This document shows positions 1,714 through 13,433 of a stretch of 13,433 bases of DNA, one piece after another. Numbering within the stretch: the stretch's first letter is position 1; each line of letters starts with the position of its first letter. Origin of the DNA: Promethearchaeota archaeon (GTDB lineage: Archaea; Asgardarchaeota; Lokiarchaeia; Sigyniarchaeales; SOKP01); assembly GCA_048941015.1 (NCBI GenBank), contig JBHLNZ010000077.1:1-13433 (forward strand), given 5' to 3'. The notes under the pieces are model-generated. The model was not told the DNA's origin. It ran no database searches and saw only the letters and a list, made by a program, of their open reading frames with translations. The translations under genes were made by a program, and so were the position numbers.

Positions 1714-2313
1714 TCATATTTTTAACATAAGATTCAATTTTATTAGACTAATTACTGAAGAAGCTAAAAATGATTGGTATCCTAAACTTAAATTGGGTAG
1801 ATCTAATTCTTTCAATTCGGGTGATTCTATAAATTCACCACTTTGACTCCCTATCACGAAAACAACATTATTTCTTGAAAGAATCTCTACTTTATATTTA
1901 AAAAAATCTTCGCCACTTTCATTAAGAATATATATATTATATCCTTGCTCTCTCTTTAACTTTATTGCATCAATAATATTTATATCTCTATGTTCAATTG
2001 AGTTTAAAGGATTAACTTGCTTATTATTTCTGACTTGCCCTTCCTTTATTAACTTAACAAAATAATCGGTTAGAAGAATTTCATTTTTAGGAAATAACTG
2101 ATAATCTAATGAATTTGGATCAAAGATATATGTTCCATACTTTTCTAAAAAAGTCCAAATTTGAAAGTCTCTCTCGAATCCACCATCCTTTATTAAAGCA
2201 GATATTATGCACCTAGAAATTACATCAAATCTGCCGGAACTACCCGGAATATCTTTGATATTATACTTATCGATATTTACCGTGTTAGAATTAATGAAGA
2301 AGATAATAGTCAT
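1714..2313 (-). CDS. trmY: tRNA (pseudouridine54-N1)-methyltransferase, SPOUT family
   Basis: DIPGSSGRFDVISRC matches the TrmY D(L/I)PGSxGRxD motif. C-terminal SPOUT knot LNESG...FVIGSQSG...LSLG. Confidence 0.85.
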   Translation of the reverse strand: MTIIFFINSNTVNIDKYNIKDIPGSSGRFDVISRCIISALIKDGGFERDFQIWTFLEKYGTYIFDPNSLDYQLFPKNEILLTDYFVKLIKEGQVRNNKQVNPLNSIEHRDINIIDAIKLKREQGYNIYILNESGEDFFKYKVEILSRNNVVFVIGSQSGEFIESPELKELDLPNLSLGYQSFLASSVISLIKLNLMLKI

Positions 2314-7694: not shown

Positions 7695-8431
7695 AAGTTA
7701 ATAATTTAAATTTTAGTTATAATTCAACTTTTCAGATTAAAAACATGTCATTACATGTTGAAGAGAATTCCGTCTATGCTCTAACAGGAAATAACGGATC
7801 AGGTAAAACTACGCTATTAAGACTTTTAGTAGGATTATTGAAGCCAAACTCAGGACAAATTAAAGTATTCAATGAACTACTCACTCGAAATAAAAAACAA
7901 TTATGGAGAATTAGACAGAAAATAGGATTTTTATTTCAAAATCCAGATGATCAACTTTTTGCTCCAACTATTGAAGAAGATATAGCATTCGGGGCAAGAA
8001 ATCTGAAGTTTAATGAAAATGAAGTAAAAAGTAGATTGATGTGGGCTTTAAATGCTGTAGATTTAACCGAATTTAAACATTTTTCTCCATTTGACCTTTC
8101 ATGGGGTCAGAAGAAGAGAGCTGCTTTAGCTGGTTTATTAGTAATGAAACCAAAATTATTAATTTTGGATGAACCTTTCGCTAATCTGGATTTTAAATCG
8201 ATATACAATCATCTAGAAATCTTTGAAAAATTAAGAAAGGAAAATAATATGACTATATTATTTACAACTCATAATATCTTTTTTGTAGAAAATTGGGCAC
8301 ATAGGATGCTTTTTCTTCATAACGGTGAAAAAATATATGAAGGATCTCCTAAAGAAGGACTGAAGAATCCACTTGTTATGAATTTAGTTGGATCCTATAA
8401 TGACTTTTTAGATTTATTAAATAAATCTTAA
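7679..8431 (+). CDS. ECF transporter ATPase (NikO/CbiO family); true start probably ATT/CTG at 7679-7687 rather than ATG 7745
   Basis: GNNGSGKTT, FQNPDDQLF, LSWGQKKR and LDEP motifs. The in-frame upstream extension IILAVEVNNLNFSY is the usual first strand of ABC ATPases. SD AAGGAGGT at 7665-7672. Confidence 0.92.
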   Translation: MILAVEVNNLNFSYNSTFQIKNMSLHVEENSVYALTGNNGSGKTTLLRLLVGLLKPNSGQIKVFNELLTRNKKQLWRIRQKIGFLFQNPDDQLFAPTIEEDIAFGARNLKFNENEVKSRLMWALNAVDLTEFKHFSPFDLSWGQKKRAALAGLLVMKPKLLILDEPFANLDFKSIYNHLEIFEKLRKENNMTILFTTHNIFFVENWAHRMLFLHNGEKIYEGSPKEGLKNPLVMNLVGSYNDFLDLLNKS

Positions 8432-8512
8432 AATGAAAATCTATAAATATAAATTAGACAAAATAATGATTAAATTTTTTAGCTTAATGATTTTATTATA
8501 ATTTGGGAAATA

Positions 8513-8589
8513 ATGATGGAAATTTAGCATTCTCGAGGGCACATATGATAACAAATGATTATGTGTGCAAAATAATGCAGACATCCTGA
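8513..8589 (+). ncRNA. H/ACA guide RNA hairpin 1 nested within a box C/D K-turn; predicted 23S Psi2496 guide
   Basis: Lower stem GCATT 8527-8531/AATGC 8574-8578. Pocket CTCGAGG/GCAAAAT. Upper stem GCACATA/TATGTGT, then U.U and tandem GA.GA K-loop. ACA at 8581-8583, exactly 14 nt from the upper stem. Flanked by ATGATGG(A) 8513-8520 and (TC)CTGA 8584-8589. Confidence 0.8.
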
Positions 8590-8610
8590 ATTTAATAATC
8601 AAAAAATCCA

Positions 8611-8690
8611 CTACCCATAAAATGGGCTCTTGACTAAGCAATGGTATCTTCCACTGCAATGAAGTATGAGTCAGTACCCTTGGGCAGAAA
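8611..8690 (+). ncRNA. Candidate H/ACA-like hairpin 2 with a non-standard K-turn
   Basis: Lower stem CTACCCA/TGGGCAG, pocket TAAAATG/AGTACCCT, upper stem GGCTC/GAGTC. K-turn-like ACT-AA-[GCAATGG/CCACTGC]-AAT-GA-AGT. ANA-type AAA lies 15 nt from the upper stem. Confidence 0.5.
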
Positions 8691-8723
8691 TGATTATTTA
8701 CCCATAAAAGCATAGAAATTAAC

Positions 8724-8802
8724 GCCTAACACGAGAGAACTTTTTTGATATTTATGGTAAATCCTTGATATGATAAAAAAGTGTTAGTGTTTTTAGGCAA
8801 CA
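8724..8802 (+). ncRNA. Candidate H/ACA hairpin 3
   Basis: Lower stem GCCTAA 8724-8729/TTAGGC 8793-8798, followed by A-ACA (8800-8802). Upper stem ACTTTTTT/AAAAAAGT capped by a TGA...TGAT tandem GA motif. Confidence 0.6.
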
Positions 8803-8848
8803 ATATATGCCAAATAAAGAAAGATTCTATTATACTACAGAAAATATA

Positions 8849-9319
8849 TCATAGAAGACTGATACTATCTGAACTAAAAAGTTCCTTTAATTCCTTATTA
8901 ATCTCCCCTTTATCTTCTTGAAGATAACGATTCAATATTGTACTTATTCTTGAAGCATATTTTTTCATTAAAGCTCTTACATAACCAATCTGTACATTTT
9001 TATCTGTTGCAATGCACAAAACTCCTTTACCAACTTTTACAGAAAATATCATTCCCTTGAAATATTCTGTAATTTGAAGATCAATATCACCATAGCCTAA
9101 AATATGGCCCTGTTCTTCCCCAGCAGTAAAAACAGCTCCTCCAATCGCACCAATTTTTTCTACAGAGATGTCTTCTTCATTTTTAAAAGTAAATTTAGCT
9201 TCACTCATAATAGTTATTCCTGTATCATCAATAATAATAGCATATTTCAACCCAGGTGTACTATTGATAATATCACTTAATATTTTTTTCAATCTGTGTT
9301 CATCTTGTGAATAACTCAA
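8849..9319 (-). CDS. Roadblock/LC7 (MglB-like) domain protein
   Basis: TPGLKYAIIIDDTGITI, helix VEKIGAIGGAVF, and strands QITEYFKGMIFSVKVGKGVLCIAT, followed by NVQIGYVR; TTG start. Confidence 0.85.
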   Translation of the reverse strand: MSYSQDEHRLKKILSDIINSTPGLKYAIIIDDTGITIMSEAKFTFKNEEDISVEKIGAIGGAVFTAGEEQGHILGYGDIDLQITEYFKGMIFSVKVGKGVLCIATDKNVQIGYVRALMKKYASRISTILNRYLQEDKGEINKELKELFSSDSISLL

Positions 9320-9520: not shown

Positions 9521-9877
9521 CTAAAACAATTCTTGATTTTTAATCAAATCTTTTAATGGTTTTACTCCATTTTTATAACTTTTAGTTTTTTCTAATAAAA
9601 TAAACAGTTTATATCTTTTACGCCTGTCTATATCAAATTTCAATTGTACTAAATTCGGATCTTTTATCAGATCTTTATTTTCTTTATTCTTTGACACAGC
9701 CCATAAAGCTAAAGTATTTTCATGAATCCAAAGTCTTTTTGAAATTGTTGATCCAATAGGAAAACCATTCCAGTCAGTTATAACTCCTGCTACAAAGTTA
9801 GGGAAATATTTTTTAATTCTGTGTAGAAAATAATTTACCTCAATCTGATTTATTAACCTCGTCGTTTCAGCTTTCAT
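9521..9877 (-). CDS. Divergent roadblock-like protein
   Basis: PNFVAGVITDWNGFPIGS resembles the roadblock beta-hairpin xxxxDxxGxxIxS. The remainder is poorly conserved. Confidence 0.55.
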   Translation of the reverse strand: MKAETTRLINQIEVNYFLHRIKKYFPNFVAGVITDWNGFPIGSTISKRLWIHENTLALWAVSKNKENKDLIKDPNLVQLKFDIDRRKRYKLFILLEKTKSYKNGVKPLKDLIKNQELF

Positions 9878-11086: not shown

Positions 11087-11335
11087 TTATTTCATTTTAG
11101 CATATAATTTTAAGTTTGAGTCAATTTGAATTTTAGATATGTTTTTTATAGAGATAAAAGGAAATTTTACGGGACCAAAAATCTCTTTAATATATCCAAT
11201 TTCTTTATATTCTTCTGTAAATACTGATTTGTTAAGGATTTTTTCTAGGTTTTTATTCCATCTTTTGGCTCTAAATATTTCATGCTTTTTTGATTCCCCG
11301 AGATAGAAAAAATCTAACTTAACCCAATTTAACAA
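11087..11335 (-). CDS. gar1: H/ACA RNP component Gar1/Naf1
   Basis: IGYIKEIFGPVKFPFISIK matches the Gar1 motif G(K/x)VxDxFGPVxxPY. Sits directly upstream of tfb, the conserved archaeal arrangement. Confidence 0.88.
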   Translation of the reverse strand: MLNWVKLDFFYLGESKKHEIFRAKRWNKNLEKILNKSVFTEEYKEIGYIKEIFGPVKFPFISIKNISKIQIDSNLKLYAKMK

Positions 11336-11614: not shown

Positions 11615-12712
11615 TTAATGGTATTTTTTTTGTAAATGATATAAAATTTTGCAATCACATTTAGCAGAATCCTTTATCTTCTGAATATGGGTAATATCTT
11701 GAGAAAGAACATAATTTTTTAGTCCTGTAATCATATTTTCATTACAATCTCTTTTCAAACAATTATGAATACCTCTTTTACTTCCTGCTCCTGAAGGATC
11801 AGATATAATTCTTGCATTTTTTATTCCTTTGATATCGCTGTTCGCTTTTATCAGACATTTAAATAACGAATAAAACCAAGGAGGGCGGTATCTATTTTGA
11901 AGCCATAAAAGTTCTACTAGTGTATCCTTTTGAATATTCGTAGGATTAATAGAAATAGTATCAACCTTTAAATCAATAAGTTTTTCAATTGAATTAAGGC
12001 AATCATCTATAGCCGCATATTCATTAAGAAATGGAGGTTTAAATAATAAATAGACTCTTATCCCAAATTTTAACTCTTTACAAATCTGAACTGTTTTTAA
12101 AAAATCTTTATATAATAATCCTTTATTTATATATTGATTTCTTATTTTATCATTGACAGTTTCAAGTCCAATTGCTATTTCAATATATTTATTTTTAATT
12201 AGATTCTGCATTGCTTCTAATTTTGCTTTTGAAATATATTCAGGTCTTGATTCCACAACAATTTCTTTTATTTTATCGATATTTGCAACTTTTTTATAGA
12301 TTTTTTCTCTAATTTGTTCTGAAATTTCATTATCATCAAAAAAGCTTCCCGAATTAAATATTTTCAATACATAATCCTCTTGATCTGAGTTAATTTGTTC
12401 TAATTTCGATTGAAGTACAAATTCAAATTGTTTTAAAATATTTTCGTGATCGATATCTTGTAAATAAGAATCGTTTATATATCCACACATAGAACACCCC
12501 CCTTTTTCACTTAAAGCCCAACTACATCCTTTTGTTCTTAATACAATTGCCAATTCTTTCCCTTTACCATTTAAAAGACGATCCTCTTTTATCCAAAAAC
12601 TAACAGGTCTATCTAAAGGAGGAATTGATTTCTTTCTCTTTTTATCCGTTGATTTTTTTCTTAAATATTTTACTTTCTCAACTAAAAGGTTCTCATCATT
12701 TAAGTTTTTCAT
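11615..12712 (-). CDS. Archaeosine biosynthesis radical SAM protein RaSEA (start may be 12712 or 12742)
   Basis: LRTKGCSWA...GGCSMCGY variant cluster motif, KIFNSGSFFD, VESRPEY, IGLET, YRPPW and RGIHNC; adjacent to ArcS. Confidence 0.92.
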   Translation of the reverse strand: MKNLNDENLLVEKVKYLRKKSTDKKRKKSIPPLDRPVSFWIKEDRLLNGKGKELAIVLRTKGCSWALSEKGGCSMCGYINDSYLQDIDHENILKQFEFVLQSKLEQINSDQEDYVLKIFNSGSFFDDNEISEQIREKIYKKVANIDKIKEIVVESRPEYISKAKLEAMQNLIKNKYIEIAIGLETVNDKIRNQYINKGLLYKDFLKTVQICKELKFGIRVYLLFKPPFLNEYAAIDDCLNSIEKLIDLKVDTISINPTNIQKDTLVELLWLQNRYRPPWFYSLFKCLIKANSDIKGIKNARIISDPSGAGSKRGIHNCLKRDCNENMITGLKNYVLSQDITHIQKIKDSAKCDCKILYHLQKKYH

Positions 12713-13433
12713 ATATTTCAGCAATCTTTCCTGATTGTGCATTTTTTATATAATTCGACCCTACTAACATCTTTACAACAGCTATAATTTTCTTTCTGCT
12801 CTTGTTTAATACGAAGGCATAATTATTTGGAATAAGATCAAGACTATAATCTATTATTCCAGGGCGAAATAATGTATTTCCACTGATTTCATCTCCATCG
12901 AATATTAAGCTATTCGAAAAATTATCAAATTGATAAATAATATTCGCCCCATTTAAACTCAATTCAATTTGTCCAATATCTTTCAAAAATCTTCCCAGAA
13001 ATTTATTTGTTGATTGTTCATATATTTCTAAACTTGAATCATTTCTAGTTCTTCTCATTATGATTCTATTTTTAGTAAACTTCATTCCATAACCTTTTCC
13101 AAACTGATAATCAATCACTTTTACAATCTTTCTATGCCATGATTTTAAAAAATCCTTATTTTTTGGAAAATATTCTTTTGGTATAAAACGATCTTTATAT
13201 TTTTCTATCAGACTCTTAAGGGAATCTAAAGAATTGCTGGAAGTGAGGTTTCTATCAACCTTAGTAAAAATTATATCATTTTTGACGTTATGTATAACCT
13301 TATTAATAACTTTTAGGTATCCATCCTCTTCAAAATGGCAAATAATTGGAATTTTAATATCGTATTTTTTAATTATTTCAATTAGCATATTCGCTGCAAT
13401 ATCTATTTCTTCTTCATTCCAATCACCTGTCAC
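12696..13433 (-). CDS. arcS: Archaeosine synthase ArcS, C-terminal part with PUA domain (5' end outside the window)
   Basis: VTGDW motif at the window edge, DYQFG motif, and PUA-like NTLFRPGII...IAVVKMLV; immediately upstream of RaSEA. Confidence 0.82.
   Translation of the reverse strand: MTGDWNEEEIDIAANMLIEIIKKYDIKIPIICHFEEDGYLKVINKVIHNVKNDIIFTKVDRNLTSSNSLDSLKSLIEKYKDRFIPKEYFPKNKDFLKSWHRKIVKVIDYQFGKGYGMKFTKNRIIMRRTRNDSSLEIYEQSTNKFLGRFLKDIGQIELSLNGANIIYQFDNFSNSLIFDGDEISGNTLFRPGIIDYSLDLIPNNYAFVLNKSRKKIIAVVKMLVGSNYIKNAQSGKIAEIYEKLK

Follow-up and report, generated by a model that had tools for sequence, protein, structure and literature searches.

A probable three-motif box H/ACA guide RNA of Lokiarchaeal Asgard archaea with predicted targets in the functional core of 23S rRNA

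Introduction

Among prokaryotes, no known group is more closely related to eukaryotes than the Asgard archaea. The working of archaeal box H/ACA ribonucleoproteins (RNPs) is established and is the basis of the mechanism proposed below; the usual spacing between target and ANA box in their guides is about 14-16 nt. About half of the activity has been reported at n+18 (PMC7075261).

Among the described systems, the three-motif box H/ACA sRNAs Pab40, Pf7, Pho40 and Afu4 of Thermococcales and Archaeoglobus are the closest in number of motifs (PMC2377435). Like these HgcG-type RNAs of Rfam, the RNA described here has three H/ACA motifs, every one of them with an ANA box and with a K-turn or K-loop, and all of its predicted targets lie in 23S rRNA. 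As reported there, motif 1 of the Pab40 type guides Ψ2588 of P. abyssi, in which position 2678 corresponds to Haloarcula Ψ2621; with an offset of 92 (2678 = E. coli 2586), P. abyssi 2588 would equal E. coli 2496, and motif 1 thus seems to share the target of the first hairpin of the Asgard RNA (PMC2377435). Unlike the Pab40 group, the Asgard RNA is undetected by Rfam models, even at E <= 10.

A second relative in design is sR-h45 of Haloferax volcanii, likewise a multi-hairpin RNA with a structured linker, in which a single pocket, that of SL2, serves both positions of the helix 69 pair (E. coli 1915 and 1917) and leaves UNUN of the target unpaired, as is predicted for the third Asgard hairpin; it differs in having two hairpins, the first of which targets Ψ2605 (PMC7075261). 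The joining of an H/ACA motif to a box C/D-type K-turn motif has a parallel in Pab21/Pf1, although Pab21 is described as a single motif with a 16S target, while in the Asgard RNA the K-turn closes the first hairpin directly past its ACA box (PMC2377435).

In yeast, Ψ2865, Ψ2923 and Ψ2258/2260 are guided by snR46, snR10 and snR191, respectively; all of these positions are also modified in human, and the helix 69 pair is modified in E. coli too (PMC8307265). These snoRNAs and their human counterparts have the same sites as those predicted for the Asgard RNA (PMC8307265). However, in eukaryotes each guide is a snoRNA of its own that has two hairpins, an H and an ACA box and no K-turn, whereas the Asgard RNA combines three guides in one. 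No description of an Asgard guide RNA was found in the literature searched or in Rfam.

The window analysed here is a whole stretch of 13,433 nt from a Promethearchaeota archaeon (assembly GCA_048941015.1, contig JBHLNZ010000077.1). One of its intergenic regions very probably encodes a single primary transcript of about 310 nt that acts as a three-motif archaeal box H/ACA guide sRNA, predicted to target the functional core of 23S rRNA (target positions are given in E. coli numbering). The RNA belongs to a known class, the archaeal multi-motif H/ACA sRNAs; what is unusual is a set of extra clamp helices.

Genomic context

The RNA lies in a gap of 417 nt (8432-8848) flanked by convergent genes (Table 1). 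An earlier note, made from the sequence of the window, had placed three same-strand hairpins there and read them as a guide RNA cluster; the hairpins are now delimited at 8527-8578, 8611-8687 and 8724-8798 and are backed by compensatory changes. The G+C enrichment that it described also holds, with 0.35-0.36 at 8550-8774 against 0.19-0.22 in the adjoining spacers. The gar1 gene is located about 2.3 kb away, as stated, and the TrmY, ArcS and RaSEA genes listed for the window are represented by a TrmY-type methyltransferase gene (PF04013), an ArcS-like C-terminus and a radical-SAM gene. The latter two overlap by 47 nt. The window is thus rich in RNA-modification genes, comprising these three, gar1 and the guide RNA gene. 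No tRNA genes occur in it. Pfam gave no match for a 118-aa ORF (9521-9877, minus strand) that separates the roadblock-like gene from tfb. Rfam models gave no match to the RNA region at gathering score, and at E <= 10 over 8380-8900 only chance-level matches were obtained, none of them to an H/ACA family, HgcG included.

Table 1. Predicted elements of the guide RNA locus and genes in its surroundings
Feature	Position	Strand	Remarks
Whole predicted RNA	8505..8812	+	about 310 nt, three clamped H/ACA modules; conservation, full-length models R1/R2/R3
Likely BRE/TATA element, AAATTTTTTAG	8472..8482	+	assigned from position and consensus only
Kt0 5' strand, box C-like AAUGAUGGA	8512..8520	+	3-nt bulge, sheared GA, NC-stem UGGA
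H1	8527..8583	+	covariation; unique all-Watson-Crick 23S target
H1 lower stem GCAUU/AAUGC	8527-8531 / 8574-8578	+	
H1 5' pocket CUCGAGG	8532-8538	+	
H1 upper stem	8539-8566	+	7 bp and K-loop (UGA...UGAU)
H1 3' pocket GCAAAAU	8567-8573	+	
H1 ACA box	8581-8583	+	14 nt from pocket top
Kt0 3' strand, box D-like UCCUGA, then AUUU	8584..8593	+	AUUU pairs with AAAU 8508-8511 (C-stem)
H2 clamp 5' strand UAAUCA	8596..8601	+	pairs with UGAUUA 8691-8696; RNAalifold
H2	8611..8690	+	lower-stem covariation, guide-23S covariation
H2 lower stem CUACCCA/UGGGCAG	8611-8617 / 8681-8687	+	5/6 pairs covary
H2 5' pocket UAAAAUGGGC	8618-8627	+	
H2 upper stem	8628-8671	+	K-turn with 3-nt bulge AAU, A.A at 2b.2n (second sheared position)
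H2 3' pocket CAGUACCCU	8672-8680	+	
H2 ANA box AAA	8688-8690	+	ACA or AUA in relatives
H2 clamp 3' strand UGAUUA	8691..8696	+	directly 3' of ANA box
H3 clamp 5' strand GCAUA	8710..8714	+	pairs with UAUGC 8806-8810
H3	8724..8802	+	covariation of 10 pairs; unique all-Watson-Crick helix 69 match
H3 lower stem GCCUAA/UUAGGC	8724-8729 / 8793-8798	+	extended by CAC 8730-8732 / GUG 8787-8789
H3 5' pocket GAGAGAA	8733-8739	+	
H3 upper stem	8740-8781	+	8 bp and K-turn (UGA/UGAU)
H3 3' pocket U-GUUA	8782-8786	+	
H3 ACA box	8800-8802	+	
H3 clamp 3' strand UAUGC	8806..8810	+	
TrmY-type methyltransferase gene	1714-2313		PF04013
CbiO-like ABC ATPase gene	7745-8431	+	5' side of gap
Roadblock/MAPKK1_Int-like ORF	8849-9319	-	3' side of gap
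gar1	11087-11335	-	Pfam Gar1 match E 1.5e-6, 28.3 bits, just below the cut-off of 29.3 bits
Radical-SAM gene	11615-12742	-	
ArcS-like C-terminus	12696-13433	-	DUF5591, TGT_C2, PUA

Predicted promoter, strand and extent of the RNA gene

Conservation among relatives extends from GGG at 8505 to just past ATATGC ending at 8810. The TATA-like sequence to which the earlier note had drawn attention, TTTTATTATAA at 8491-8501, is indeed present, only 4-14 nt upstream of the start of conservation, and is unlikely to be the TATA box since it lies too close to this first conserved GGG; as a promoter element it was probably misplaced by about 18 nt. Better placed and better conserved is the A/T box AAATTTTTTAG, which precedes the invariant GGG by about 22-27 nt in both the genus and the family alignments (by about 27 nt in the window) and likely sets the predicted start of transcription near 8503-8505. 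The 3' end likely lies shortly past the 3' strand of the H3 clamp. T-runs occur just downstream of the RNA in relatives, while the window itself has no clean T-run.

Folding energy by itself does not pick the strand (z = -2.55 for the plus and -3.34 for the minus strand). Conserved G.U pairs, which had already been taken to favour the plus strand, do so in the alignments (for example, columns 139/188 are G.U in 20 of the 21 same-genus sequences), and together with the ACA boxes, the polarity of the K-turns and the upstream promoter they assign the RNA to this strand.

On the minus strand a 90-aa ORF (8441-8713) is open in the window, and its conservation as a protein would have pointed to a coding region instead. 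It has no Pfam match, and it is not conserved: the longest open frames of 20 relatives from the genus measure 38-59 aa, with frames and strands changing, length differences are mostly non-triplet, and substitutions track base-pairing rather than codons. The probability that this region codes for a protein is therefore practically negligible. The ORF is a by-product of the RNA gene on the opposite strand and is likely to be annotated as a hypothetical protein by gene callers.

Secondary structure and covariation

A BLAST search against 40 relatives recovered the region in 20 of the 24 same-genus genomes, with 73-77% identity over about 320-380 nt. In the genus alignment, invariant blocks lie between stems that have changed on both sides. 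A hand-written structure of 65 pairs was scored on a 21-sequence alignment from the same genus, in which 93.6% of the cells were paired, as compared with 34-44% when partners were slid by 1-3 columns; 20 of the 65 pairs showed compensatory changes within the genus, and none of 500 shuffles reached the observed values. At the family level, H1 and H2 were paired in 92.7% of cells across 57 sequences, with compensatory changes in 29 of 40 pairs, in an alignment that was fitted to the model. H3 was tested apart on 21 sequences from 11 genera (90.6% paired; 10 of 22 pairs compensatory).

All three hairpins consist of a lower stem, an internal-loop pocket and an upper stem, with compensatory changes in the lower as well as the upper stems. 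Each upper stem carries a K-turn or K-loop whose conserved sheared pairs are placed 8-9 layers above the pocket, and which represents a predicted L7Ae site. An ANA box follows the lower stem in every case, ACA in H1 and H3 and AAA in H2. The distance from the top of the pocket to the ANA box is 14 nt in H1, 16-17 nt in H3 (including 2-3 bulged U in the lower stem), and in H2 either 16-17 or 13-14 nt depending on which of the two target schemes discussed below is adopted, that for the A loop or that for U2585. In stems, pocket, K-turn or K-loop and ANA box, the three hairpins have the sequence and structure by which H/ACA motifs are defined, in agreement with the proposal of a multi-hairpin guide RNA locus near gar1.

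The genome encodes Cbf5 (427.8 bits), Nop10, Gar1 and two L7Ae-family proteins. In the mechanism proposed, L7Ae would bind the K-turn or K-loop of each hairpin and Cbf5-Nop10-Gar1 its lower stem and ACA box; the pocket strands would pair with 23S rRNA on both sides of an unpaired uridine, which Cbf5 would isomerise to pseudouridine. The analysis shows conservation, the fold, the box elements, complementarity to rRNA, the covariation of the H2 guide with its target, and the genes for all four core proteins; transcription, RNP assembly and the modifications themselves are inferred.

Predicted target of hairpin 1

The assembly contains only the first 1.4 kb of the 23S rRNA gene, without its 3' half, and no 16S rRNA gene; targets were therefore read from relatives, using the complete rRNAs of two same-genus genomes. 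Same-genus 23S rRNAs (L033 and L034, in G017 and G008, respectively) are 3.33-3.37 kb long, compared with 2.99 kb for an archaeal model, and their genes are not next to the 16S gene in these assemblies.

The H1 pocket strands GCAA and UCGAGG pair with 23S UUGC-UU-CCUCGA, forming 4 and 6 bp around UU in a canonical arrangement. The pattern UUGC-U.-CCUCGA is the sole all-Watson-Crick H1 site in the 23S and 16S rRNAs of a same-genus genome, where 0.002 would be expected by chance, and in anchored scans the site scored 27-28 against a null maximum of 21-24 (p ~0.01-0.025). The target U is located five bases 5' of the C of CGAUG and therefore corresponds to E. coli 2496. Thus, H1 is predicted to target U2496 in the peptidyl-transferase ring, equivalent to yeast Ψ2865, by a mapping of yeast onto E. 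coli positions that was inferred via Um2921, equated with E. coli Um2552, and m5C2870.

An unconstrained RNAduplex ranking of targets was too noisy and did not rank the H1 site first, and a genome-wide regular-expression search returned hundreds of uninformative chance matches because the genome is AT-rich. No convincing two-arm target was found in 19 tRNAs predicted by ARAGORN in the same genome, in which the UGGGU-U-CA matches are T arms only.

Two candidate targets of hairpin 2

In H2, AAUGGGC pairs with 23S GCCCAUU, which is the 3' strand of helix 92 by the A loop. On the other side, CAG(N)ACCC and GGGGCUG form a duplex with a small bulge, so that U2554-A-C is left unpaired. Early definitions of the H2 pocket, with GGCUC/GAGUC or GGG/CCC at its base, gave no target. 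The A-loop site scored 36 in the anchored scan; the second-best real site reached 22-24, and shuffled sequences reached maxima of 25-28. GGG(.)CUG-U..-GCCCAUU is the sole all-Watson-Crick H2 site in the 23S and 16S rRNA of the same-genus genome searched for H1, and none of 2000 shuffles matched it, although the shuffle statistics for H2 and H3 are optimistic since both pairing schemes were fixed after the sites had been seen.

Further support is provided by covariation between guide and rRNA in four lineages, with the pairs AAUGGGC/GCCCAUU, GACAGGC/GCCUGUU, GAUAGGC/GCCUAUU and AACGGAC/GCCCGUU; in this comparison the own rRNA is the best fit for each 5' pocket guide. In family f5 the 3' strand has switched as well, to UAACC with GGUUG. 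Family f24, with the guide GACGGGC, was left out, as its sampled genomes have no assembled 23S A-loop region. The A-loop uridine U2554 lies two bases after the equivalent of Um2552 and thus corresponds to yeast Ψ2923.

The scheme is not fully canonical, however. Its 7 bp and bulged 6-7 bp surround UAC, so that three target bases are unpaired, and it needs a bulge of 1-3 nt in the 3' pocket strand; the ANA box and the first paired base are 16-17 nt apart, more than the usual 14-16 nt. In genus g9 (G038), only 4 of the 7 positions of the 5' pocket sequence CCUAGGC match GCCCAUU in the rRNA of the same genome. For these reasons, and because of the fit of an invariant ACCCAG to CUGGGU, U2585/U2586 of the peptidyl-transferase loop was kept as a rival or second site. 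This site is equivalent to Haloarcula Ψ2621 and Haloferax Ψ2605. The sequence ACCCAG(C) is invariant throughout the phylum at a fixed distance of 13 nt from the H2 ANA box, and its perfect pairing with (G)CUGGGU at 2578-2584, which is better than its pairing with the A loop, puts U2585 at the canonical n+14/15. Motif 2 of Afu4/Pf7 is also predicted to target the equivalent of 2585/2586, and two or three sites can be served by a single H/ACA motif (PMC2377435). However, only 4-5 of the 7 positions of the 5' pocket pair with GACCGUC, a G.A mismatch lies inside this pairing, and the lineage-specific changes of the pocket track the A-loop stem and not the invariant segment on the 2585 side. That H2 guides U2585/U2586, either instead of or besides U2554, is thus possible but not probable, and the A-loop uridine U2554 (helix 92) is the predicted target, while U2585/U2586 may be an alternative or additional one.

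In the same-genus 23S rRNAs, helix 91, which separates the target sites of H1 and H2, exceeds that of E. coli by about 31 nt. The 23S gene of G161 (L194) spans 4.8 kb; just past its A-loop stem lies an insert (CCCAUUAAAAAGG[...]GGGAACG) that may be an intron.

Predicted target of hairpin 3

With CAC/GUG (CAU/AUG in f5 and CAU/GUG in f18) counted into the lower stem, the H3 pocket is GAGAGAA and N-GUUA. The pocket pairs with UAAC-UAUAA-CUCUC of helix 69, forming only 4 and 5 bp around UAUA(A), so that H3, like H2, is not fully canonical. The pattern UAAC-U...-CUCUC is the sole all-Watson-Crick H3 site in the 23S and 16S rRNA of the same-genus genome, with 0.003 expected by chance, and the helix 69 site does not vary among the six Asgard 23S sequences in which it is covered. 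H3 is thus predicted to target U1915/U1917 within an unpaired UNUN, equivalent to yeast Ψ2258/2260. The 5' pocket fits helix 69 of the type shared by Asgard archaea and eukaryotes (ACUCUC), while the euryarchaeal sequence is ACGGUC.

Three other 23S sites were rejected. At UAGC-UG-GUUCUC (helix 35) the rRNA differs among families while the guide is invariant; pairing with UUAAC-UGUG-CUCGUG (p = 0.13) needs CAC, which is unconserved outside the family and paired with GUG in the hairpin; and GUUUUCUCGU matches a single arm only.

In f14 (L181, L182, L192 and L197), the two strands of the H3 pocket, AUAUUAA and UUAGUGU, could pair with one another, and this pocket may therefore be closed in the free RNA.

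Clamp helices and an additional K-turn

An outer clamp helix surrounds each hairpin and its ACA box; the 3' strand of the clamp begins 0-2 nt past the ACA. The H2 clamp has compensatory variants in two genomes (G069 and G103). In the H3 clamp, compensatory changes yield GCGUG/CACGC in G089 and replace A-U by U-A in G008, and both strands are absent together in four genomes. The clamps of seven other Asgard families are unrelated in sequence, but are still complementary and abut the ACA. No such clamps are known to us from the descriptions of archaeal H/ACA RNAs, although Pab21 of Pyrococcus carries a C/D motif (PMC2377435). Their role may be guessed to be scaffolding or protection of the 3' end.

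The H1 clamp contains a box C/D motif, in which AAUGAUGG (8512-8519) and CCUGA (8585-8589) form a K-turn, Kt0, with covarying stems. Its 5' strand pairs with 8584-8589, and the GG/CC stem is replaced by GA/UC and AG/CU in relatives; in other Asgard families Kt0 is a canonical K-turn of the form GC-NAU-GA...GA-GC. It is probably a further L7Ae site. Pairing of the 5' GGG (8505-8507) with CCC (8701-8703) is tentative; it is invariant in the family, while the 5' GGG is absent from most other Asgard families.

AUGAUGG...CCUGA is a good match to box C/D, and the K-turn is conserved across Asgard families, which raises the question of whether H1 belongs to a composite C/D-H/ACA guide, in which its K-turn recruits Nop5-fibrillarin and GACAUC upstream of box D directs 2'-O-methylation of 23S GAUGUC, a complementary sequence adjoining the H1 target. 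Pyrococcus Pab21 is a precedent for an H/ACA sRNA with a C/D motif (PMC2377435). However, this candidate methylation guide is only 6 nt long and overlaps the ACA box, and a free guide spacer of 10-12 nt is absent on both sides. Relatives have ACAGCC, AUAUCC, ACAUCU, ACAUUC, AUAUCU or ACA-CU here, matched by changes in the K-turn partner of the stretch, against an invariant rRNA sequence GAUGUCGG. A search for a conserved 9-12 nt methylation guide upstream of box D or D' at the H1 module found none. A composite guide that directs methylation from the H1 module is therefore very unlikely.

A broader proposal is that the locus represents an Asgard-wide variant of the H/ACA RNP, in which a clamp directly follows the ACA of every unit and the first of these clamps is a genuine K-turn of box C/D. 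A single scaffold would then carry three Cbf5 modules with at least four L7Ae sites and coordinate the modification of helix 69, the peptidyl-transferase centre ring and the A loop during large-subunit assembly, and the C/D-clamped module could be a prokaryotic forerunner of the eukaryotic composite C/D-H/ACA (scaRNA-like) RNAs. This proposal is speculative and, as a whole, improbable.

A probable single primary transcript

Whether the hairpins form one RNA or several guides had been left undecided. A single promoter-like box is conserved, with no conserved counterpart inside the RNA locus. The linkers are short, about 5-25 nt, and partly paired, with helices spanning them, and of the eight further Asgard families covered, seven (f14, f24, f18, f23, f5, f15 and f2) share the order H1-H2-H3. 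The single conserved promoter, the linker-spanning helices and the fixed order point to one primary transcript.

Such a transcript could still be a polycistronic precursor that is cut into three single-hairpin guides, with the clamps as processing signals. Each module is self-contained and closed by a helix whose 3' strand starts right by the ACA, the RNA of family f28 appears to have only two modules, and Pab21 is reported to occur in vivo in two forms, with and without the C/D motif (PMC2377435). On the other hand, no bulge-helix-bulge motif was found at the clamps, the linkers are short and partly base-paired, the modules are conserved in order and number across families, and mature three-motif H/ACA sRNAs are known, namely Pab40, Pf7 and Afu4 (PMC2377435). 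Cleavage into separate guides is thus rather unlikely, and a three-hairpin RNA is the preferred reading. In f28 (L188), H1 and an H3-like helix 69 guide lie within one clamp, GCGCCGG/CCGGCGC, and H2 is seemingly missing.

Distribution and synteny

Three covariance sub-models (R1, R2 and R3) were built, of which R1 covers H1 and H2. With R1, one full-length copy each was detected in 93 of the 101 genomes of the family, across 12 genera, and the H1 module was found in 30 more genomes from eight other Asgard families. The diverged copies of f2 were missed by R1 and R3 and were recovered with R2 and BLAST.

Of 80 tfb loci, 57 have the RNA at a distance of no more than 3 kb, which bears out the synteny with the tfb-gar1 neighbourhood that had been proposed as a check. 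In 13 of these 57 loci (L099, L113, L137, L128, L131, L126, L101, L138, L120, L166, L125, L102 and one more) tfb and the RNA gene have the inverted relative orientation; their linkage thus survives local inversion.

Implications

The clamps and the extra K-turn are a small but well-supported oddity, with a bearing on how the ACA box is presented to Cbf5. For annotators, the RNA is a missing gene that is present in most genomes of the group. Its points of interest are the clamp architecture and the eukaryote-like choice of sites: Lokiarchaeal rRNA is predicted to carry pseudouridines at eukaryotic core sites, namely in helix 69, at the equivalent of Ψ2865 and at that of Ψ2923 in the A loop, and one compact guide of archaeal style would do the work of three snoRNAs.
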